64,000 bases of DNA from an uncultured Candidatus Saccharibacteria bacterium (GCA_964585475.1 CAZPDF010000001.1:1441-65440), one strand, 5' to 3'; shown: positions 3,939 to 28,092, counted from the first letter of the stretch. Notes: a model not told the origin generated them from the sequence alone. Program-made: numbers and translations.

Positions 3939-4164
3939 TGCTTAACCTCGTCTGTAGTGATCTAGCCCATTCGTTGCATATAGGGGGACTTAAGTCAAGT
4001 TTTCTAAAACATTCTGTTTTCCACAGTTTTGGGAAACCCCGCCCCTACTCTACTGCGGAATTCTTACCCTTACTACAAGGATACTGCAGCTTGACCCTTG
4101 TCTTTAATAATTCAACTACGAGGTAGAGTAGGGGGAGCGGGGTAAACAAAATGGACCAGTATTT

Positions 4165-5064
4165 CTACTTGGTCCGAGACGAATTGATGGTGATTGCCCG
4201 TATCCATTTTGAATCCCGGGTCACATATTCATAGCCGCGTTCTTCAAGAAGTTTCTGCATATAGAGAGTGTGGTACCAGCCGTATTTAAGACATGCGGTC
4301 ACGGGCTTAGAACTTTGAAGGGGGTTTTGAAGGAGATTATCAAGCACTTTTAACGCCTCTTCATCGCGTTCCCGGGTTACGAAGTCGCGTACGGGCTTAC
4401 GAAGATCCCGGTATTCGATAAATGCGGTTCTCATCCATTTCTCAAATTCGGGTTTGGTTGCATTCCCCGCTTCCACTTTTGAGAAAAATTCGTGGGAGAG
4501 GGCGGCAAATTCAATGCGCGAAAGTACCGGAGAGGCAGAGGCGATTTCTTGCAAAGATTTCCAGAAATTGCGCCAGCCATTTTTCTCTTGCCGCATATAC
4601 CAAACCGCATCTCCGGAAACCCAGTTTGGCTGTTGATAATCAAAAGCAGTTCGTTCGTCCCACCAGCCAAAGATGGAGCGGAAAGTGGGATGTGAAATCA
4701 GATCGGCGATGGCGAAAAATCTGTCAAAATCCTCCCCGAAAAGTTTGGGTTTCTGAATAAGCTCGCGATACCAATAGAGCTCCGGGCTTTCGGGCGCAAG
4801 TTTCTCCGCAAGCGGCCCCTCGTAAATTACGTAGTCGCACTGGCGAAGTATTTCGCGAAGATGGAGATAGTAAGCGGGATCGGCCTGATGAATGGTTCCG
4901 ACAAGTATGATTGTCCGCTTGTCGCGCGGATGCCAGAAGTAATTGACCTTGGTTGAGATGGCCTGAGGTTCAATGAGCAGTCCTTTCGGTACCGGCTTGG
5001 ATTCCCAGGGCGGTTCTTGGCAGGCAAAGAAGAGTGTTGCAACACAGACAATGGTTTTTAACAT
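4165..5064 (-). CDS. TraB/GumN-family protein, probable lipoprotein
   Basis: 299 aa. N-terminus LFFAC has a lipobox-like Cys. LVGTIH resembles the TraB/GumN GTxH motif. Confidence 0.5.
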   Translation of the reverse strand: MLKTIVCVATLFFACQEPPWESKPVPKGLLIEPQAISTKVNYFWHPRDKRTIILVGTIHQADPAYYLHLREILRQCDYVIYEGPLAEKLAPESPELYWYRELIQKPKLFGEDFDRFFAIADLISHPTFRSIFGWWDERTAFDYQQPNWVSGDAVWYMRQEKNGWRNFWKSLQEIASASPVLSRIEFAALSHEFFSKVEAGNATKPEFEKWMRTAFIEYRDLRKPVRDFVTRERDEEALKVLDNLLQNPLQSSKPVTACLKYGWYHTLYMQKLLEERGYEYVTRDSKWIRAITINSSRTK

Positions 5065-6573: not shown

Positions 6574-7095
6574 ATGAACACCGGAGAACAGAATAGTTTT
6601 CTTAAGGCATACGAAGATTTTTCAGACGCAATCTTCCGGTATTGCTATTTTCGGCTTTATCACCGGGAACTTGCGAAGGATCTCGCGCAGGAGACATTTA
6701 TAAAGACTTGGGAATACATTGCCAAGGGAGGGAAAGTGCAGAATATACGCGCGTTTTTATACCGCGTGGCGCGAAACCTCATTATCGATGAGTCAAGGAA
6801 AAAGCGGATGTTCTCTTTGGATTTATTGCGAGAAAAAGGGTTTGATCCGGCTGTATCCATGGAGGAGGAGATACAGTCCCACGCAGGCGTAAGGGATGTA
6901 ATGAAGTTTCTTTCGGATCTTGAGCCGAAATACCGCGAAGTAATTATCTTGCGCTTCGTTGAGGACATGTCACCCAAAGAAATTGCGGAGGCGATTGGTG
7001 AATCGGAAAATAATATATCGGTACGACTCCACCGCGCAATTAAAAAAGTGCGGGAGCTAATAGAGAAGGAATCTCGCCATCATGAATCCCGTTAG
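6574..7095 (+). CDS. RNA polymerase sigma-70 factor, ECF subfamily
   Basis: 173 aa with sigma2 (ETFIKTWEY) and sigma4 HTH (PKEIAEAIGESENNISVRLHRA) regions. Confidence 0.85.
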   Translation: MNTGEQNSFLKAYEDFSDAIFRYCYFRLYHRELAKDLAQETFIKTWEYIAKGGKVQNIRAFLYRVARNLIIDESRKKRMFSLDLLREKGFDPAVSMEEEIQSHAGVRDVMKFLSDLEPKYREVIILRFVEDMSPKEIAEAIGESENNISVRLHRAIKKVRELIEKESRHHESR

Positions 7096-8378: not shown

Positions 8379-8987
8379 TTGTATGCCAATATGGAGAACC
8401 TGAAAAAATCAGCATTGATATTCGGGATTATGGCCGTAGCGCTTGCGCTTGTATTCAGCGCGACTATGTCGGTGCGCGCCGATTCGGACGATAACGACTT
8501 GGAGGATTTGTTTGAAGGAAAGGGAGCGTTTAAGTTTGATAAGTTCCCGCCGGGGCTTGATAAAAAGCGCGATCTTCCCAAGGGTCCGAGTTTCACCGTA
8601 AATCCGCAGGGCCGAGTGTTAATTAGCGCGGGGGAAGTTACCGAAGCGAATTGGCCGAATCTCAAAGTTAAGGTGTGGGGTCTTTCGTTGAGTGTTCACG
8701 TTATGCCGAATGCGGTTATCCACGGAGCAGCCGCACCGGTCGTAAATACGAGCACTTCAACCGCAACGACCACTCCCCCTACAACTACGGGTGGGGTATC
8801 GGTAGGCGACAAAGTGGATATTTTGGGGGAGATGGAGTCCTCGACCGGCCTGATCCACGCGCTTCATTTCAAGAACCGTTCGCAAACTGACCATACGATT
8901 AATGCGCTCCAGCAGAGAATCCAGGAACTCTTGAAGGAGATTGAGAAAATCCGCCAGAGTCTTAAGGATATCCGGAAGGGACTGTAA
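8379..8987 (+). CDS. secreted hypothetical protein (Thr-rich linker)
   Basis: 202 aa with signal peptide LIFGIMAVALALVFSA, a TSTSTATTTPPTTT linker and a C-terminal helix. Confidence 0.5.
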   Translation: MYANMENLKKSALIFGIMAVALALVFSATMSVRADSDDNDLEDLFEGKGAFKFDKFPPGLDKKRDLPKGPSFTVNPQGRVLISAGEVTEANWPNLKVKVWGLSLSVHVMPNAVIHGAAAPVVNTSTSTATTTPPTTTGGVSVGDKVDILGEMESSTGLIHALHFKNRSQTDHTINALQQRIQELLKEIEKIRQSLKDIRKGL

Positions 8988-8997
8988 TTTGTTGCAT

Positions 8998-9038
8998 CGA
9001 GAAAAACGAATACGCCACCCGGGTGGCGTATTCGTTTT
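8998..9038. terminator. bidirectional rho-independent terminator
   Basis: AAAAACGAATACGCCACCC GGG TGGCGTATTCGTTTT, a 15-bp stem with U-runs on both strands. Confidence 0.7.
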
Positions 9039-9159
9039 GGTGGGCAGTGAAGGAATCGAACCCCGTAGCAGAACCTTCGGTTCGCTACGGGGCAGGCCTA
9101 CGGCCTTCGCGGTGTAAACGCGACGCTCTTCCGGGGATTCTTCTATTTCGAGTGTAAAT
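9039..9159 (-). other. tRNA-Val-like element with genomically encoded 3' CCA (fragmentary or unusual tRNA)
   Basis: Minus strand contains a second copy of the Val anticodon arm TCGCG TTTACAC CGCGA, a GGCCGTAGGCC hairpin, a 9-bp hairpin CCCCGTAGC..GCTACGGGG, a T-loop-like GGTTCGATTCC and ...CACTGCCCACCA. No cloverleaf 5' acceptor partner was found. Confidence 0.3.
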
Positions 9160-9231
9160 TGGGCGCTCAAGGGATCGAACCTTGGGCCTTCTCGGTGTAA
9201 ACGAGACGCTCTACCACTGAGCTAAGCGCCC
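9160..9231 (-). tRNA. tRNA-Val(TAC)
   Basis: GGGCGCT TA GCTC AGTGGTA GAGC G TCTCG TTTACAC CGAGA AGGCC CAAGG TTCGATC CCTTG AGCGCCC A. Confidence 0.85.
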
Positions 9232-9235
9232 AAAA

Positions 9236-9667
9236 TTATTCTCCGGTCCAGCTTAATATCCAGCGCGGCTTGATTTTTAAAGTCACTCGGGAGCCGGCCT
9301 CCAGCAGCTCCTTAAAATATTTCCCCGCTTTTTCTTTTGGCAAGTACTTATATGCGAGCCGTTCTAAAAGCTTTCCTTCCGGGTCGTCCTCCATGGTGAC
9401 ATCTCCGTAACCGACAACCGCAGCATAAGGTAGAGAGTGTTCAGCAATAGAAAACCCCGCCTTGGGATCCTCCTTTAAATTTCTCGTCTTTTTACGTCCC
9501 GGGGTGGTGCTGACCAAAAAGTTTTCTCCATCATACTCAAACCACACCGGAGTTACATGAGGATATCCTTCCGGCGTAATTGTCGCAATATCCATCAGGA
9601 CAGGACGCTGAAAAAATTTTTTCATTTGTTCCGGAGTCATCCCCGGAGTTACTGGATTTGAAGACAT
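9236..9667 (-). CDS. pyridoxamine 5'-phosphate oxidase-family (FMN-binding split-barrel) protein
   Basis: 143 aa with MDIATITPEGYPHVTPVWFEYDGENFLVST, typical of the PPOX/general-stress-protein-26 fold. Confidence 0.7.
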   Translation of the reverse strand: MSSNPVTPGMTPEQMKKFFQRPVLMDIATITPEGYPHVTPVWFEYDGENFLVSTTPGRKKTRNLKEDPKAGFSIAEHSLPYAAVVGYGDVTMEDDPEGKLLERLAYKYLPKEKAGKYFKELLEAGSRVTLKIKPRWILSWTGE

Positions 9668-9668
9668 A

Positions 9669-9740
9669 TGCGCGCTGAGGGGATTGAACCCCCGACCTAC
9701 TCTACGTCAAAGAGTCGCTCTACCACTGAGCTACGCTCGC
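9669..9740 (-). tRNA. tRNA-Val(GAC); two acceptor-stem mismatches
   Basis: GCGAGCG TA GCTC AGTGGTA GAGC G ACTCT TTGACGT AGAGT AGGTC GGGGG TTCAATC CCCTC AGCGCGC A. A4:G69 and G7:A66 do not pair. Confidence 0.55.
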
Positions 9741-9822
9741 AAGTGTAACGGGGCAAGCTACCGCCTAATTTGATGAATTAGGCGAGCCTCGCTCAGCTTT
9801 GATGAGCGGGAGCCAAACGCCC

Positions 9823-10011
9823 TTATGATTTCTTCAATTTTTTAAGTTCTTCAAGTTCCGCCTGAAGATTGGCGCGTAGTTTTTCCTGCTCTTCCGGCGT
9901 TAAATCCGAAATAATATTTTTCCAGAATTTCAATTCTTCCGCATCTTCGCCAAGAAGGAGCAGTTCGTCAATGGTTGCCCCGATGTCATTATTTTTTACG
10001 CCATCGATCAT
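9823..10011 (-). CDS. small acidic hypothetical protein
   Basis: 62-aa ORF whose stop overlaps the start of the upstream gene (ATGA). Confidence 0.35.
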   Translation of the reverse strand: MIDGVKNNDIGATIDELLLLGEDAEELKFWKNIISDLTPEEQEKLRANLQAELEELKKLKKS

Positions 10012-10592
10012 ATCATTGCAGGTCCCGGCTCTAGTTCGTTGAGATATTCTTCTGCCTGTTTCCCCATTCGGCGCACGCCTTGGATAAATTGTTCTCGCTT
10101 GTCCATAAAGTATGACGCAGTTTTTTCAAGGAAAGCAGCTGGCTTTGGAAATTTGTCCTTTGTTTTTTGCGCGATTTCCTGCATCATTTCCGGGCCGAAT
10201 TCTATTTTGGCGATAAAGCTCGAAGCGCTTCGCGCGGCAAGCGCTGCCTCCGGCGTGCCGAATGCCGCTAATGCGTAGGAGAGCGCGATCCCGCCGCCGA
10301 TAAGCATATGGTCGAAGCGCTGCCTTGATGTTAATTTTTCGTTGCTTAAGGTTTTCCCGAGCATACCCTCGATCGCGAGTTTGGGAGCATCAATTCCCGG
10401 CACGAAGTTTGCGGCAATATCAATCGTTCGCGAAGTTACCATGTCTTTCAAGAGCCCGAGGCGCCCCTTTTTATGCCGCTCCATCGTCTCTTGGTATTCT
10501 GGAACGAGTATCGATTCCGTGCCCTGGGCCACCGATTCCGCGGGCGGTATCTCGGCTTCTTCAACGGGATTAATGTTTTCAAATGATGGCAT
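10008..10592 (-). CDS. hypothetical protein
   Basis: 194-aa ORF with coding-like composition; no recognisable motif. Confidence 0.45.
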   Translation of the reverse strand: MPSFENINPVEEAEIPPAESVAQGTESILVPEYQETMERHKKGRLGLLKDMVTSRTIDIAANFVPGIDAPKLAIEGMLGKTLSNEKLTSRQRFDHMLIGGGIALSYALAAFGTPEAALAARSASSFIAKIEFGPEMMQEIAQKTKDKFPKPAAFLEKTASYFMDKREQFIQGVRRMGKQAEEYLNELEPGPAMI

Positions 10593-16201: not shown

Positions 16202-16270
16202 TTTCTGACTTGACAAAACAATACACTTTTGCTACTAATGTTGTTAGTTCTACCAAGGAGAAAAAGGGTT

Positions 16271-16747
16271 ATGGACGGAATCAAGGCCGCTTTCACGCAG
16301 CCATTAGACCCCAGTCTGGAAGAAAGAAAACAGCAGAGAGAAGATGAAAAGAAGCGTTTGGCGAAAAACATTTTGAGCATTTGGAGAATCCAAGCGAAAG
16401 GACCCGTGATTTCAGATGAAGAACTGGCAACCATCAGAAAGCGTGCAGCATGTAGCGAGGATCTGAGTCCGGACGAGGTCAGACGACTGGTACAAACGAT
16501 TGATGCGGCTCGACTAGGTTTCGCTCATGGCATTCTCAAGGATTTTCCGCCACTATTTAGCAGGGTCTACGAGCACGGTGGATGGGAAGATGTTTTTGAT
16601 GGAGAGGTTATCGCACATCTGCCAAATGGTCGCATTAGGGTCAAGACTATGCATGGTGGCGAATTCGTCGAAGAAACATGGTCGAATTGGTTCAACGAAG
16701 AAGAGTTCGTTGAGATGTTTGGAGAAAAACCAGTACGTAACTGGTAA
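16271..16747 (+). CDS. hypothetical protein
   Basis: ORF starting MDGIKAAF; charged N-terminus; no motif recognised. Confidence 0.4.
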   Translation: MDGIKAAFTQPLDPSLEERKQQREDEKKRLAKNILSIWRIQAKGPVISDEELATIRKRAACSEDLSPDEVRRLVQTIDAARLGFAHGILKDFPPLFSRVYEHGGWEDVFDGEVIAHLPNGRIRVKTMHGGEFVEETWSNWFNEEEFVEMFGEKPVRNW

Positions 16748-16818
16748 GAAGAAGGTCATCAACACCGTTTGGCTTCGCCATACGGTCTTTTTTTATCCAA
16801 AACTTGGTACCAAAAACC

Positions 16819-16847
16819 AAAAAGCCGTAACTCGTTACGGCTTTTTG
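16819..16847 (+). terminator. rho-independent terminator
   Basis: AAAAAGCCGTAACTCGTTACGGCTTTTTGG. Confidence 0.7.
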
Positions 16848-17159
16848 GTGTGGACCCGGCGGGACTTGCACCCGCTTTCTCGCTTACCAAAGGCGAAATT
16901 TTACTCCATAAACTACAGGCCCAGGGTCCACAGAATAAAGGTAAAACAAAAGAAGCCCCTTTTCAAGGACTTCTTTTGTTTGGTAAGCGAGGACCCGCAA
17001 TTTATGCGAATTCCGCCTTGTGACTCCATTATACTCTTGCCAACTTTTATGTCAATAGGAAGTATTAACAGTAAAATTTGGTATCAATAAGCCCTTCACC
17101 CCGATTACGGCGGTTCGAGCGATCGCCCATCCGAAGCTCAAAGAACGAAGAAGAGTTGT

Positions 17160-17312
17160 GACATAACCCGCTCAGGTTTACATCTTAAATTTAATATTTA
17201 AAACCTGAGCGAAGCTCGCCCAGTCAAACTGGGCGGCTAACGTCGTGTACTGACCCGCTTCTGGAAAACACCGCTTATTCAAGCGGTTGTTTTTGTTGCG
17301 GGTAAGGGGGAG
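17160..17312 (+). ncRNA. candidate small structured RNA (three hairpins closed by an ACCCGC/GCGGGT helix, ending in a terminator-like hairpin plus U-run)
   Basis: Hairpins CGCTCAGGTTT..AAACCTGAGCG, CGCCCAGTCAAACTGGGCG and CCGCTTATTCAAGCGG followed by TTGTTTTTGTTG. No ORF spans the region. Confidence 0.25.
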
Positions 17313-17385: not shown

Positions 17386-17604
17386 ATGAAAGAACGAGAC
17401 GAACTGCATATCCATCGTCTGGGAAACCGACGCACAGTATCAATTTTACAGAGAAATGGACTTTTTGGGGAATGGAATGAGGTGAATGTAGCATTCTCGC
17501 AAGTCAAACCGCTCATGGCGGCTCTTTCAAAAATCACTACGCGTGGCGCACAAAGAAAAGTAGCTTACAAGATCGGGAAAACATTACAAGAAGACAAAAG
17601 TTAA
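17386..17604 (+). CDS. small hypothetical protein
   Basis: 72-aa ORF in an AT-richer segment. Confidence 0.3.
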   Translation: MKERDELHIHRLGNRRTVSILQRNGLFGEWNEVNVAFSQVKPLMAALSKITTRGAQRKVAYKIGKTLQEDKS

Positions 17605-17696
17605 ATAATAAACAGCGATTCCGCTTGGTCATCAATCGGAATTTTTTTATCCAAAACTCGGCACAAAAGAAGTTTGACTTCCCAAACCAACCATAA

Positions 17697-17732
17697 CAAC
17701 ATTCCAACATTCTCAAGAATGTTGGAATGTTG
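17697..17732. promoter_or_regulatory. perfect 17-bp-arm palindrome CAACATTCCAACATTCT-CA-AGAATGTTGGAATGTTG (ArsR-type operator candidate)
   Basis: It shares the core ATTCT-CA-AGAAT with the palindrome upstream of the ArsR gene at 25453-25478. It lies upstream of ORF 17951-18268. Confidence 0.5.
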
Positions 17733-17950
17733 TGTACATATGAAACTGGTTCCCACCTAGTTAAACTGGGTGAGGCCCCCGTTTTAGCAAGAGCGAGGCC
17801 CGCCCCGATGGGCGGCGCCCAAATATTTTTTGTGTGGCTAACTTCACACGCTAACTCGCTCGTCAGTAGAAAGAAAACCGAAAGTTGTAAAAGGAACATC
17901 GGTGTGCTACTTTTGTTTTTAGTTCTGGCAAGCAATTTAGAGGAAAGCGA

Positions 17951-18268
17951 ATGCGACATTGGACGCACGACGAACTGCACGTTTTGATGAATAGCAGTCT
18001 GTCCTTGAAGACAAAATCCGACAGAGTGCATTCGTTTCCGCAAGTCAGTTCGGAACAAAAAGAGCAGGGTAAACTCCAAATGATGGAGATATATGCAGAA
18101 GCAATAGATTGCAAGCAGGCCGATGCGGCAAAAGAATTCGTCAAAAAAGCGTTCTCACATATGAAGCAGAAATTGGAACTGGATGATATCCGCGAAGAGT
18201 ATGCCTCACAAAAATTGTGCCATTCTCCGCTTGGAAATGATTATATGTGCTTTTGCGATGAAAGGTAG
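17951..18268 (+). CDS. hypothetical protein
   Basis: 105-aa ORF downstream of the palindrome. Confidence 0.35.
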   Translation: MRHWTHDELHVLMNSSLSLKTKSDRVHSFPQVSSEQKEQGKLQMMEIYAEAIDCKQADAAKEFVKKAFSHMKQKLELDDIREEYASQKLCHSPLGNDYMCFCDER

Positions 18269-18379
18269 ACGGTGTAGCAAACCTACCCGTTTTTATTTAC
18301 CCAAAATTCGGCATCACAGGGGCATAAATTTTGACTATCTCTAGAAAACGCGGTAAGCAGGAGATAGTTTCCTTGATTT

Positions 18380-25051: not shown

Positions 25052-25163
25052 GAATGCGGCTAATGTGTAGAAGAGGGGGCATTAAAAAAAGATTAAAAAC
25101 TGCCGCGAGGCAGTTTTTAATCTGCCTATAAGAAGATATTGTCGGCTATAAATCCGCGTATTT

Positions 25164-25433
25164 CTATTCTAATGTTCTTAAGAATTTGAGAATAGATATT
25201 CCGGTGGAAGTAAGTTTGTGCCGGATTGAAGTTCCATCCGACCGCTTCATTAAAAGACCCGCAATGCCAAGCCGCCGTATATGTTCCGAGATGGTTTTGA
25301 AGTTTACGTCAAGCTTCTCGGAAATTTCCGAAACCGAAAGTTCCGGCTCCCGCCCCAGGAGCTGCATGATCTCAATTCTTCTATGGTTCGCGAATCCCTT
25401 CACGATCCGCTCAAGTTCCCTTGTCTTTTTCAT
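25164..25433 (-). CDS. ArsR/SmtB-family transcriptional regulator
   Basis: 89 aa with winged HTH: RRIEIMQLLGREPELSVSEISEKLDVNFKTISEHIRRL. Confidence 0.8.
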   Translation of the reverse strand: MKKTRELERIVKGFANHRRIEIMQLLGREPELSVSEISEKLDVNFKTISEHIRRLGIAGLLMKRSDGTSIRHKLTSTGISILKFLRTLE

Positions 25434-25452
25434 TCCTTTTTATGATACTTTA

Positions 25453-25478
25453 TTCTAATATTCTCAAGAATATTAGAA
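25453..25478. promoter_or_regulatory. operator-like palindrome TTCTAATATTCT-CA-AGAATATTAGAA upstream of the ArsR gene
   Basis: Perfect 12-bp arms, about 20 nt upstream of the regulator's start codon. A degenerate copy lies at 25164-25196. Confidence 0.6.
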
Positions 25479-25563
25479 TAAGAGTTTTATCACATGTTCC
25501 GTGGCATTTTTTATATTTCTTTCCGTATCCACAGGGAGTTAATTTGTAACGCGCGGAAAAATA

Positions 25564-28092
25564 TTATTTCAGGTCCTCGGAGGACAATGAAAACTCGCTC
25601 CCCGGTTTTATCTCGCCCTTGATGATCTTATCGGCGATTTCTTTTTCTATTTTGTCTTGAATAAAGCGCTGCATCGGCCGCGCGCCAAAAGCCGGATCAT
25701 ATCCGCCTTTCGCGGCCGCATCAACCAATCCGTCCGTTATTTTTAAAATTATATTCTGTGATTTCAAGCGCGATGTCAGTTTCTCGAGCATCAGGCGCGC
25801 GATTTTCTGTAATACCTCTTTGCCGAGCGGCCTGAAAATAATTACGGCGTCAAAGCGGTTCAAAAGCTCCGGGCTCATTATTTTTTCTTTCTGGATATAC
25901 TCGATGATTTGCCGCTCCATGCTTGAGGGATCTTCTCCGCGGTTGGTTAGTTCCCAAATAAGTTGGGATCCGGCGTTGGAGGTTGCAATAATGATGGTGT
26001 TTCGCATGTTCACGCGCTCTCCCAAGTAGTCTGAAAAGAAGCCCTCATCCAGAACCTGCAGGAAGAGGTTTTTTACTTTGAGGTTTGATTTCTCAAATTC
26101 ATCCAGAAGTACCACGCCGTAAGGATAGGAGCGGATTTTGCTTGCTAAGATTCCCGGCTCGTTTTTCTCAAAAGATCCGAGAAGCCGCGTTACGTCCTCA
26201 TCTGTTTGGAACTCGGTCATGTCTAGTCGCACCGTGGCTTCCTCGTTTCCGAAGTAGCTCTCGGCGAGCGCCTTGGCGGTCTCTGTTTTTCCGACGCCGG
26301 TTGGCCCCAGAAAAAGAAAAGTGCCTATGGGACGCTTCGGATTTCGGGTGCCCGCGCGCGCGCGGCGGACGGCATCGGCAATCGCCTGGATCGCCATTTC
26401 CTGATCAATTACTCGCTTGTGGAGTATATCTTCGAGAGCAAGCAGTTTCTCCTTTTCTTCTCCCGTAATTTCCCCAAGCGGCATTTTGGTTTTTCGTTCT
26501 AGGATGGCAAGCACTAGCTCCGGTCCCACCATGAATATTTTTTGGGCAACCGCCTCATTCGCTACTTCCTCCAATAAATCAACCGCGCGTTTGGGCATGG
26601 CGCCGGTAACAAGGAAATTTGTTGCGCCTTCACCTATTTTCTCAAGCGCGGGGTAAGTGAAGATAATTTTTCCTCCGCGTGAGGCCTCGGTTGCCGGAAT
26701 TATGTCCTCCAGAATTTTAAATAGTGCGTTTCCGGCCGGCTCCGCAATTTCAATTTTGGAAAAATGTTCCATCAGGCCCTTATTCGTTTCGAGGATTCTC
26801 CGGAAAGGCAGGGTGTCTGCGAGAGCAATAATATGAATATCTGAACTTCTAAGATAAGGCTGTAGGAGTTCATTTGCGCTAATACCTAAAGCCGTGAGGG
26901 AGGCGGTAAATTCCGGGAATTCGTCTATGGCGAGTATTATGTTCCCGGCCTTTACAGCTTCGTTTAGCAAGCGGAGGAGGAGTGACTCTGTTTCTCCTTT
27001 GGTTTTTCCGGAGGCGACAACGCCAGAGCCAAATAGTTCAAGAATGCGTTTGTGTTCAAGTTCCGGGAAAATGTTGCCGTGCGTAATCATCCGCGTAAGC
27101 CCGAGAAGAATTGTTCGCTTGCCTGTGCCGGGTTCCCCCACCAGAACCAGGTTTGCCCCGGATTTTTTAAGAAGGGAGGATTCAAGAAGTTTGATCTCGC
27201 GATCGTGTCCGATAATTTCTTCTTCGGCCCCCAGCGCTTCATAGGCGAGGTCTCTCGCAAATTTTTCAAGAAAGGCCGTGTGTCCGTACGCCCAGTCTTT
27301 GGCAAATCCCGGAATGCGGCCCAGCCTGACCCTAGTCCACCATCTGCGTTTTGCATCACCTTGCGAAAATTTTTCTTCCTGCCATTCGGCCGCCCCGCGC
27401 AGGGTAACTGGCGTTACGCCATTGGCCATGAGGTAATCGCGGAACGGCTTGGATGTTTCAAAAAGGGCCGTCATGAGGTTGGCGAAAGTTATATCCTTAT
27501 CGGCGTCAATGTTTTTTTCAAGATAGCCCAAGAGGGTATTGATATTTCCGTCTACATCGCCGGCCGAAATAATGGTTTGCAGGAGATTTTTATATTCTTC
27601 GTTTTCAACTCCAAGACGCCAAATAAGTTCCTGGCCGATATCGGTCCTGGGCAGCGTTTCAAATAATCGAGATAGGGTTATTGTGCCGGCGGGGGAAGAT
27701 GCGCGGTACCAAACCTGGGCCGCATATAAATTTAAGCGGCACAAGATATTGGAGTGCGGCGCTTCTCCTGGTTTGTCGGCGGTCTTTGAATTGAAAAACC
27801 CGTCAAGCGCCCCAAGGAGTAGACGCGGGGCGGTGAGAAGAAATAAGGCCCCGATCAAAAAATTTTGATCAATTCCCGGTATCTCCGTCGGCAGTCGGAT
27901 CTCTATGCCGTATGCATGCGTTCCCGCGACCTGCCGCGCCAGCAGAGAATAAAAAATTAGCGCGAGGTTAACCAAAACCATTTTGTCAAGAACTCGCGCG
28001 ATGGAATTTCGAAAACGGCGCGGGAAAACGTTTTCAAGGGCGAGCGCCCCGATGAATTTATTTTCGAAGATGTGGGGATAAGGCGTAGGCAT
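25564..28092 (-). CDS. membrane-anchored double-AAA+ Clp/Hsp100-like ATPase (degenerate Walker A in D1, canonical D2, no ClpB M-domain)
   Basis: 842 aa. N-terminal hydrophobic segments. D1 GEPGTGKRT (Arg where Ser/Thr is expected). D2 GPTGVGKTE, sensor-2 GARPMQRFI. Confidence 0.75.
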   Translation of the reverse strand: MPTPYPHIFENKFIGALALENVFPRRFRNSIARVLDKMVLVNLALIFYSLLARQVAGTHAYGIEIRLPTEIPGIDQNFLIGALFLLTAPRLLLGALDGFFNSKTADKPGEAPHSNILCRLNLYAAQVWYRASSPAGTITLSRLFETLPRTDIGQELIWRLGVENEEYKNLLQTIISAGDVDGNINTLLGYLEKNIDADKDITFANLMTALFETSKPFRDYLMANGVTPVTLRGAAEWQEEKFSQGDAKRRWWTRVRLGRIPGFAKDWAYGHTAFLEKFARDLAYEALGAEEEIIGHDREIKLLESSLLKKSGANLVLVGEPGTGKRTILLGLTRMITHGNIFPELEHKRILELFGSGVVASGKTKGETESLLLRLLNEAVKAGNIILAIDEFPEFTASLTALGISANELLQPYLRSSDIHIIALADTLPFRRILETNKGLMEHFSKIEIAEPAGNALFKILEDIIPATEASRGGKIIFTYPALEKIGEGATNFLVTGAMPKRAVDLLEEVANEAVAQKIFMVGPELVLAILERKTKMPLGEITGEEKEKLLALEDILHKRVIDQEMAIQAIADAVRRARAGTRNPKRPIGTFLFLGPTGVGKTETAKALAESYFGNEEATVRLDMTEFQTDEDVTRLLGSFEKNEPGILASKIRSYPYGVVLLDEFEKSNLKVKNLFLQVLDEGFFSDYLGERVNMRNTIIIATSNAGSQLIWELTNRGEDPSSMERQIIEYIQKEKIMSPELLNRFDAVIIFRPLGKEVLQKIARLMLEKLTSRLKSQNIILKITDGLVDAAAKGGYDPAFGARPMQRFIQDKIEKEIADKIIKGEIKPGSEFSLSSEDLK

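Follow-up and report, generated by a model that had tools for sequence, protein, structure and literature searches.

We identified a palindromic DNA motif whose copies are predicted to be 28-base binding sites for a family of small ArsR-type proteins of CPR bacteria. The motif occurs three times (sites A, B, and C) in the 64,000-nucleotide stretch of DNA that was analysed, hereafter called the window, which comes from an uncultured Candidatus Saccharibacteria bacterium. Site B, just upstream of a gene for an 89-amino-acid regulator, would be the autoregulatory operator of that gene; site C, within the last codons of the same gene, would serve as an auxiliary operator; and site A would be an orphan of a sister class. 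We put the probability of this reading at roughly 0.6. Next to nothing is known of how CPR bacteria, most of them uncultured, control transcription. The 89-residue protein and its 28-bp site with 16 invariant positions form a sharply defined pair across many CPR lineages, and every test of the pair could be run in vitro or with a heterologous host. The features on which the argument turns are listed here in window coordinates.

17696-17733, no strand assigned: site A, a perfect 38-bp palindrome, ACAACATTCCAACATTCT-CA-AGAATGTTGGAATGTTGT, with 18-nt arms at 17696-17713 and 17716-17733
17741-17830, plus strand: hairpin and intrinsic terminator (terminator at 17809-17821 plus a T run), directly after site A
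25090-25123, minus strand: intrinsic terminator of the regulator gene, a 15-pair stem and then a T run, 40 nt past site C
25164-25433, minus strand: regulator gene, encoding the 89-aa ArsR/SmtB-fold winged-helix protein of subfamily 1, C-terminus ILKFLRTLE*
25166-25193 (core), no strand assigned: site C, class I, imperfect, spacer TA
25442-25447, minus strand: -10-like hexamer TATCAT of a predicted promoter, 4 nt after site B and 8 nt before the ATG
25450-25481, no strand assigned: site B, a perfect 32-bp palindrome, TTATTCTAATATTCT-CA-AGAATATTAGAATAA, with 15-nt arms at 25450-25464 and 25467-25481

All three sites match the 16 fixed positions of the motif ATTC-N4-RTTCT-YR-AGAAY-N4-GAAT, which consists of four ATTC/GAAT boxes with centres 8 bp apart, two pointing rightward and two leftward around a flexible YR centre. 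A search of the window for the pattern ATTCNNNNATTCTNNAGAATNNNNGAAT with up to three mismatches returned exactly these sites; shuffled sequences gave a mean of 0.09 matches, and three were reached in none of 100 shuffles. Scoring the whole 64-kb window gave 16/16 at each of the three sites and nothing palindromic above 13/16. A sequence-only reading of the window had proposed that one palindrome recurs at three sites, and the scans confirm both the copies and their positions. The perfect palindromes that it described at sites A and B are real as well, with arms of 18 and 15 nt that slightly exceed the lengths it gave. The 28-bp core of site B, a class I site and a candidate operator, lies at 25452-25479. 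Site C is 83% complementary across 23-nt arms and spans the last nine codons and the stop codon of the regulator gene. Neither the motif nor any account joining CPR bacteria with ArsR or with such a palindrome was found in the open-access full-text literature, a scope that most subscription journals fall outside.

The gene at 25164-25433 had been taken for an ArsR/SmtB-type regulator, and this identity is borne out by profile and structure. The 89-aa protein scores 38.2 bits against the Pfam profile HTH_5 (cut-off 22) and 50.9 bits, just below the cut-off of 55, against NCBIfam NF033788, a metalloregulator subfamily; the SdpR autorepressor family was also matched. Its AlphaFold model (pLDDT 92) has the element order of the ArsR/SmtB fold, alpha1-alpha2-alpha3-alphaR-beta1-beta2-alpha5. 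The top Foldseek matches of the model are YgaV, CadC, SmtB, CzrA (TM 0.90), and HlyU, and PagR also superposes. Among solved structures the best match by sequence is HlyU (E = 1e-8), with AspA also listed.

The sequence contains no cysteine. Three histidines are invariant, H17 in alpha1, H51 in the recognition helix, and H72 in the wing; alpha5 (STGISILKFLRTLE) carries neither histidine nor aspartate, as judged by inspection and not from a ligand-site model. By the same inspection, the features of metal sensing in this fold, a CXC pair in alpha3 and a set of Asp, His, and Glu in alpha5, are absent. The lack of cysteine, together with that of histidine and aspartate in the last helix, means that no classical ArsR/SmtB sensing site is present, and the idea that the protein responds to metal or redox stress thus has no basis in its sequence.

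Homologues of the protein form 1,674 clusters (E <= 1e-5) and are 65-88% identical to it. According to the record names they come from Patescibacteria (many Parcubacteria groups and Microgenomates) and from Omnitrophota, although the titles of automatically binned genomes are often an unreliable guide to taxonomy. Protein identity hardly follows the named groups, being 0.74 within them and 0.70 between them with Omnitrophota included. The position of the regulator is syntenic in groups of seven to eight genomes, and a DUF4015 gene about 2 kb downstream of it is common to the window and the syntenic relatives. The regulator is directly preceded by a gene for a ClpB-like protein (25564-28092), in which the second-AAA and D2-small domains are clear and the first ~290 residues have no Pfam match. 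This position and a weak match to Phr had raised the possibility of a heat-shock regulon, which was dropped: the neighbours vary from locus to locus, and ClpB occurs in one other locus only.

The relatives examined comprise 80 loci from species-representative genomes, in which genes were called crudely as longest ORFs. The upstream palindrome is retained in about 70 of 77 homologue loci, with a score of 16/16 in most, despite differing neighbours. In the window, 16 nt separate the proximal end of site B from the ATG at 25433, with the TATCAT hexamer in between. The same arrangement, with the -10-like box at +4 from the palindrome, is found in L023, L027, L075, and L018. In about 20 of the 77 loci a TATAAT-like box instead follows the upstream site at 14-18 nt (mode 16), a spacing that places the outer box, TTGGAA or TTAGAA, at the -35 position of the predicted promoter. 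In both arrangements, the upstream site would overlap the predicted footprint of RNA polymerase. The short distance between -10 box and ATG suggests that the mRNA is leaderless or nearly so.

Site B is thus an inverted repeat with a 13-2-13 core and a short centre, set over the predicted promoter of the regulator gene, and the autoregulatory position recognised in the sequence-only reading recurs across the family. Autoregulation by the 89-aa protein is well supported by this pattern of conservation. The sign of regulation is suggested by the overlap with the promoter, which would make repression sure only where the -10-like box lies at about +4, the arrangement of the window. The window's protein would most likely bind site B over the -35 and spacer region of the promoter of its own gene, which is probably leaderless, and thereby repress itself.

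The degenerate copy that had been noticed over the 3' end of the gene is real, and it is conserved throughout the subfamily. All 90 non-redundant subfamily-1 genes carry a 3' site, and all carry it in one register, with the first base of the stop codon at site position 28. Codon usage in the last nine codons departs sharply from that in the rest of the same genes. Arginine is encoded by AGA in 76 of 76 cases, compared with 134 of 628 (21%) elsewhere (p = 1e-45); glutamate by GAA in 75 of 75, compared with 287 of 493 (58%); phenylalanine by TTC in 74 of 75, compared with 64 of 158 (40%); and threonine by ACA in 52 of 57, compared with 26%. The first isoleucine of the site is invariably ATT, and codon positions that fall within the N4 stretches vary freely. 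Synonymous positions are therefore frozen, which indicates that a DNA motif is selected here besides the peptide ILKFLRTLE. The codon counts show a dual-coding constraint on the stretch occupied by site C. The 3' operator is fixed to the base in every one of the 90 genes, and a second subfamily re-creates it in other frames. As a case of dual coding this is unusually clean, the site shaping the C-terminal helix of the very protein by which it is presumably bound.

Some copies of the regulator have sites with a GC centre (TTCTGCAGAA), among them those of L063, L052, L080, and L076, and their C-terminus becomes ...KFCRTLE. L063 contains tandem paralogues (6578-6908 and 8751-9077), one with GC in both its upstream and 3' sites and the other with TA, a pattern that indicates that the two sites of a gene change their centre dinucleotide together.

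As an auxiliary operator, site C would capture the protein about 286 bp from site B, through cooperative binding or looping, or it would act as a roadblock to elongation. We prefer capture by looping or cooperative binding as the probable role of the 3' site; helical phasing lends it no support, since the distances between upstream and 3' sites (266-476 bp) give no significant Rayleigh test, and a roadblock is equally open.

A metagenome scan for the exact 16 fixed bases also yielded genes of a more distant subfamily (subfamily 2, LERHFKG.ANHRRIEIL...KT.SEHTR...), and these genes too are bracketed by sites. The 3' site of subfamily 2 lies on the stop codon in at least three registers. In one of these the centre of the palindrome supplies the stop as TGA or TAA (...TFSHS*), and in another a TAA falls within the left arm (...TF*). 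Retention of the 3' site in differing frames indicates that the constraint acts on the DNA and not via the peptide.

The sites of the two subfamilies differ outside the invariant positions. CA precedes the inner ATTC in 18 of 32 subfamily-2 half-sites (56%) but in 9 of 172 subfamily-1 half-sites (5%; Fisher 4e-11), and C precedes the outer ATTC in 18 of 32 and 29 of 172, respectively. The class II consensus, aACATTCyaACATTCT-NN-AGAATGTtrGAATGTTgt, is about 38-40 bp long, with no conservation beyond it. Site A carries the class II signature (ACATTC) at both inner and both outer boxes, whereas sites B and C carry it at none, and near-copies of site A (94-100% identical across 34-39 nt) occur in many metagenome loci. 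The two kinds of site meet in L070, from a Moranbacteria bin, where a subfamily-2 gene (2654-2944) has class II sites at 2585 and 2929 and a subfamily-1 gene 1.1 kb from it (4029-4316) has class I sites at 3990 and 4287; two further class II orphans lie upstream. That each paralogue is bracketed by its own type of site indicates that the two systems coexist and stay distinct.

The earlier proposal that site A is bound by the window's ArsR-type protein is not supported by these comparisons, since all four of its boxes are of the sister-subfamily type. Judging from the boxes, the protein that binds site A is most likely a subfamily-2 paralogue encoded outside the window, which contains neither a second regulator gene nor a subfamily-2 gene. 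Because the 16 invariant positions are common to site A, the window's own protein might bind there too, more weakly. Cross-binding between the classes may occur as well, given that about 5% of the operators of subfamily-1 genes themselves have ACATTC boxes (for example in L055, L068, and L079). Judging by inspection, a candidate determinant of specificity is the residue that follows the conserved E-H in the recognition helix, which is isoleucine or valine in proteins with class I sites and threonine in those with class II sites. Two classes of site and two protein subfamilies in one genome would form a natural specificity pair.

Site A lies in a 345-nt gap between ORF 17386-17604 and ORF 17951-18268, 218 nt upstream of the latter and 7.4 kb from the regulator gene, a distance in the tail of the distribution for extra sites in relatives. 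The sequence at 17741-17830 folds on the plus strand with z = -3.7 when the palindrome is left out. Beyond its terminator, and before ORF 17951-18268, a promoter-like sequence can be read by eye (TTGTAA-17-TACTTT, ~17875-17910). The intervening terminator and the separate promoter-like sequence make it unlikely that site A is an operator of ORF 17951-18268, a role that had been proposed for it. A weak -10-like TACATA lies 6 nt past the core of site A, and we speculate that the site may cover the start of a small unit that ends in a terminator (17741-17830, perhaps a small RNA unit), much as site B sits beside TATCAT. No Rfam family matched site A or 17741-17830 at gathering score, and a known RNA family at site A was set aside, permissive E-values having given only miRNA-like hairpin noise on the palindrome. 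When conservation of site A was sought in relatives, no record was found for the 313-aa neighbour protein, and the flanks of the site, compared by BLAST with all fetched loci, matched through the palindrome alone.

Several other features of this region are recorded as separate observations. The sole other contig with the ORF at 17951 (L312, Logan SRR8863434_227550) starts within site A, at about 17704; short-read assemblies appear to break at so long and perfect a palindrome, which may conceal such sites in metagenomes. A 32-nt direct repeat, CGGnnTTTTTTTATCCAAAAYTYGGYA..., occurs at 16783-16814, 17637-17668, and 18287-18318 (spacings of 854 and 650 bp). Each copy lies just past the stop codon of a small ORF or a terminator, the second being 28 nt before site A, and the small gene units after tRNA-Gly may have the repeat in common as a terminator-tail and promoter-upstream element. 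The units at 17205-17290 and 17741-17830 are similar, both on the plus strand in neighbouring gaps, with a hairpin loop AGTYAAACT (CCCAGTCAAACTGGG and CCTAGTTAAACTGGG) followed by an intrinsic terminator. The pair has no Rfam match and may represent a small RNA, not yet described, in two copies. The sequences upstream of ORF 16272-16747 and ORF 17951-18268 (16230-16257 and 17905-17932) are 82% identical over 28 nt and may share a promoter or leader, the encoded proteins being unrelated. A perfect palindrome with 16-nt arms at 16816-16849, ACCAAAAAGCCGTAAC-TC-GTTACGGCTTTTTGGT, looks like a bidirectional terminator and adjoins a minus-strand tRNA-like Rfam match (16851-16922, 42 bits) that ARAGORN did not call. 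A perfect, spacerless 36-bp palindrome near tRNA-Val at 9003-9038 (AAAACGAATACGCCACCC/GGGTGGCGTATTCGTTTT) is unrelated to the ATTC-box motif.

Orphan copies of the motif in the relatives show a strong dependence on distance from the regulator gene. Across the 80 loci, the density of extra sites per 10 kb is 1.3 within 0.5 kb of the gene, 0.8 from there to 2 kb, roughly 0.2 between 2 and 6 kb, and roughly 0.03 farther out, and L021 has up to six sites around the gene. By the gaps in which they lie, 66% of orphans are co-directional, 17% divergent, and 17% convergent, compared with 72%, 15%, and 13% for adjacent gene pairs overall. No -10 box was found at a constant offset from the orphans, and with no depletion in convergent gaps either, we rejected the idea that they are promoter operators. 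Their neighbours form clusters of at most four in an all-against-all BLAST comparison, and in Pfam the 127 neighbour proteins are spread over 129 families, none with more than three members. UvrA, Ada, DinD-like, RadC, and Fpg-like genes near some sites had brought a DNA-damage regulon to mind, which the same ceiling of three members per family among the 127 neighbours does not support. With no recurrent neighbour, background orientation, and no constant -10 spacing, a small functionally coherent regulon finds no support, and the small regulon under the control of this single protein, as suggested in the sequence-only reading, is likewise not well supported. In annotation, orphan copies should not be taken as promoters of the next ORF. 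A distinct arrangement is seen in L128, where a stretch of 2 kb (8448-10410) contains four class II sites, nearly identical, between small co-directional genes (Fic, unknowns, and a response regulator); the contig has no regulator gene, and the layout resembles a cassette array.

Some orphans lie in frame within genes. These include TspO (L044 15318, L048 8801), Dus (L027 4766, L045 3540), MnmA (L067 8141, L207), TsaD (L154 11777), an Fpg-like protein (L037 4050), and reverse transcriptases (L111, L198). Depending on the frame, such copies encode HS.ILEN.R./YS.VLKNIRI or FS.SQE.EN, and they are placed in loops or linkers. In Dus the site occupies the inter-domain linker in L027 and L045 and is missing from six orthologues, one of them 81% identical, a distribution that points to sporadic gains. 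Scores across the loci fall off abruptly: 169 sites score 16/16, 31 score 15, and 12 score 14, with background below, and this sharp gap suggests that the sites are maintained and are not decaying. At the free positions (N4 and flanks) the arms are complementary in 70-94% of cases, against about 25-30% by chance, and the sequences at these positions differ between sites of one genome. Metagenome orphans were picked by the exact 16-base pattern, and the perfection of those positions there is therefore not independent evidence; the palindromy of the free positions is. Two sites have the same centre dinucleotide in 70% of cases when they come from one locus and in 36% when they come from different loci; for an identical arm the figures are 47% and 12%. 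Viral contigs served as a negative control, in which 103 of 104 pattern matches were non-palindromic at the N positions; a phage or plasmid origin was rejected on the grounds that these matches are chance occurrences.

The orphans pose a difficulty for the reading that we adopt. Free positions that co-vary and differ within a genome are not accounted for by simple recognition by a protein, and copies inside coding regions or in convergent gaps are odd for a plain transcription factor. From the patterns set out above we infer binding, the sign of regulation, looping, and the paralogue at site A, and other explanations have to be weighed against the same patterns.

One of these, put forward in the sequence-only reading, has the single ArsR-type protein encoded at 25164-25433 act both as its own repressor, by way of site B, and as the regulator of ORF 17951-18268, by way of site A. 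The outcome would be a small regulon responsive to an effector, metal or redox. The 16 invariant positions common to all sites, the CA centre of both A and B, the tendency of same-locus sites to share the centre dinucleotide (70% vs 36%), and the absence of a paralogue from the window are all as this explanation would have them. However, site A is class II at four of four boxes and is cut off from the ORF by the hairpin and terminator, the orphans of relatives have neither a recurrent neighbour nor a constant promoter spacing, and the protein lacks cysteine and the alpha3N or alpha5 ligand residues. We consider this explanation unlikely.

We judge similarly improbable that the palindromes are a dispersed repeat, self-propagating or neutral, like REP elements or Rickettsia palindromes, which arises by local copying or template switching. 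The copies that flank the regulator gene would then be the source, and orphans such as site A would be by-products without any part in regulation. Such a repeat would fit the sporadic gains in the Dus linker (L027 and L045 against six orthologues), the in-frame copies in the TspO, MnmA, TsaD, Fpg-like, and reverse transcriptase genes, and arms that co-vary where they are not conserved. It would also fit the greater likeness of sites within a genome than between genomes, the fall in density with distance from the gene, intergenic orientations at background proportion, and a protein identity that hardly follows taxonomy (0.74 vs 0.70). Yet no decayed relics are seen, the copy number is very low (three in 64 kb), the motif is conserved across phyla where REPs are species-specific, no transposase is associated with it, and it is absent from viral contigs (103 of 104 matches being chance). 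The synteny of the regulator in groups of seven to eight genomes also speaks against a dispersed repeat or mobile cassette.

Co-variation of the arms, context-blind copies near the gene, and the weak taxonomic signal nonetheless keep a propagating or architectural reading alive. One form of it, doubtful in our estimate yet worth stating, is that the regulator and its two bracketing sites are a self-contained module that propagates its sites and is shared horizontally between Patescibacteria and Omnitrophota. If so, new copies would seed near the gene whatever the intergenic setting, some of them even within housekeeping genes and in frame, and co-variation of the arms would reflect the making or maintenance of copies through hairpin or cruciform intermediates. 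The system would then be a winged-helix counterpart of REP/RAYT, or of centromere-like nucleation, and not an ordinary transcription factor.

A role as an architectural or centromere-like organiser of DNA, on the model of AspA of pNOB8 or ParB/parS, appears very unlikely. In this role the cluster of sites at the gene would nucleate a higher-order complex, with distant sites such as A as extra anchor points. The solved structures matched by sequence include AspA, which is ArsR-like and binds a centromere; the protein's own gene contains a site, as spo0J contains parS; and the sites cluster at the gene, up to six of them in L021, with indifference to promoter context. Against this, no ParA/ParB-type partner recurs nearby, the sites show no link to a GC-skew switch in the window, and the precise relation between the upstream site and the -10 box points to transcription.

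That the palindromes act as RNA hairpins in processing, stability, or termination, and not as protein-binding DNA, is extremely improbable: site A does fold as a 17-bp hairpin, the arms do co-vary, and sites often lie just past stop codons, but the AT-rich stems have no U-tract, the terminator scan lists none of the three sites and finds the true terminators adjoining them (17809-17821 and 25123-25090), the invariant positions are sequence-specific boxes and more than pairs, the 3' site tolerates mismatches at three of 13 pairs while every box stays intact, and either orientation and divergent gaps are used.

The reading that we adopt, binding sites of an ArsR-fold family, places the window's protein beside several known systems. 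SmtB, CzrA, and CadC are ArsR/SmtB autorepressors with 12-2-12 inverted-repeat operators. The window's protein shares their fold and has, like them, an inverted-repeat operator with a 2-bp centre over its own predicted promoter. Unlike them, it is without metal- or thiol-sensing residues; its site is 13-2-13, with four identical boxes spaced 8 bp; and every member of the family has a second operator-like site in its own last codons, with orphan copies elsewhere. In its small size, its lack of a metal site, and its best sequence and family matches, the protein is closer to HlyU, PagR, NolR, and the SdpR-type regulators; it differs from HlyU, which senses through cysteine, in having none. To our knowledge, none of these regulators has an operator within the end of its own coding sequence.

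Auxiliary operators within coding sequence are familiar from lac O2 in lacZ and gal OI in galE, and the loop between lambda OL and OR encloses cI. The arrangement of sites B and C is similar in that the second operator lies a few hundred base pairs off and within a gene, and a loop between the two would enclose the regulator gene. It differs in that the auxiliary site occupies the regulator's last nine codons, is fixed to the base family-wide, and dictates part of the C-terminal helix, with no phasing signal.

The parS site located within spo0J is a ParB binding site in ParB's own coding sequence, and the ArsR-like AspA of pNOB8 binds a palindrome at its own gene. In these systems, as in ours, sites cluster around the gene of the binder. 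The present family departs from them in having no genes for a partition ATPase or adaptor, no ParA/ParB-type family recurring among the neighbours, and no evidence of spreading, and in its precise relation to a promoter. Analogies with integron attC and with Xer/dif were dropped in view of the 2-bp centre, the conservation of sequence and not of structure, and the lack of a recurrent recombinase.

In REP/RAYT systems, repeats flank a gene for an IS200/IS605-like HUH tyrosine transposase, and each genome contains hundreds of copies of these repeats, which are species-specific. Like these systems and the Rickettsia palindromic elements, the family described here combines a single-copy gene flanked by palindromes with further copies elsewhere, some of them in frame within genes. 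Its binder, however, is a winged-helix protein and not a HUH transposase, and its sites are 28-40 bp long, few per genome (three copies in the 64 kb of the window), and conserved across phyla, from Patescibacteria to Omnitrophota.
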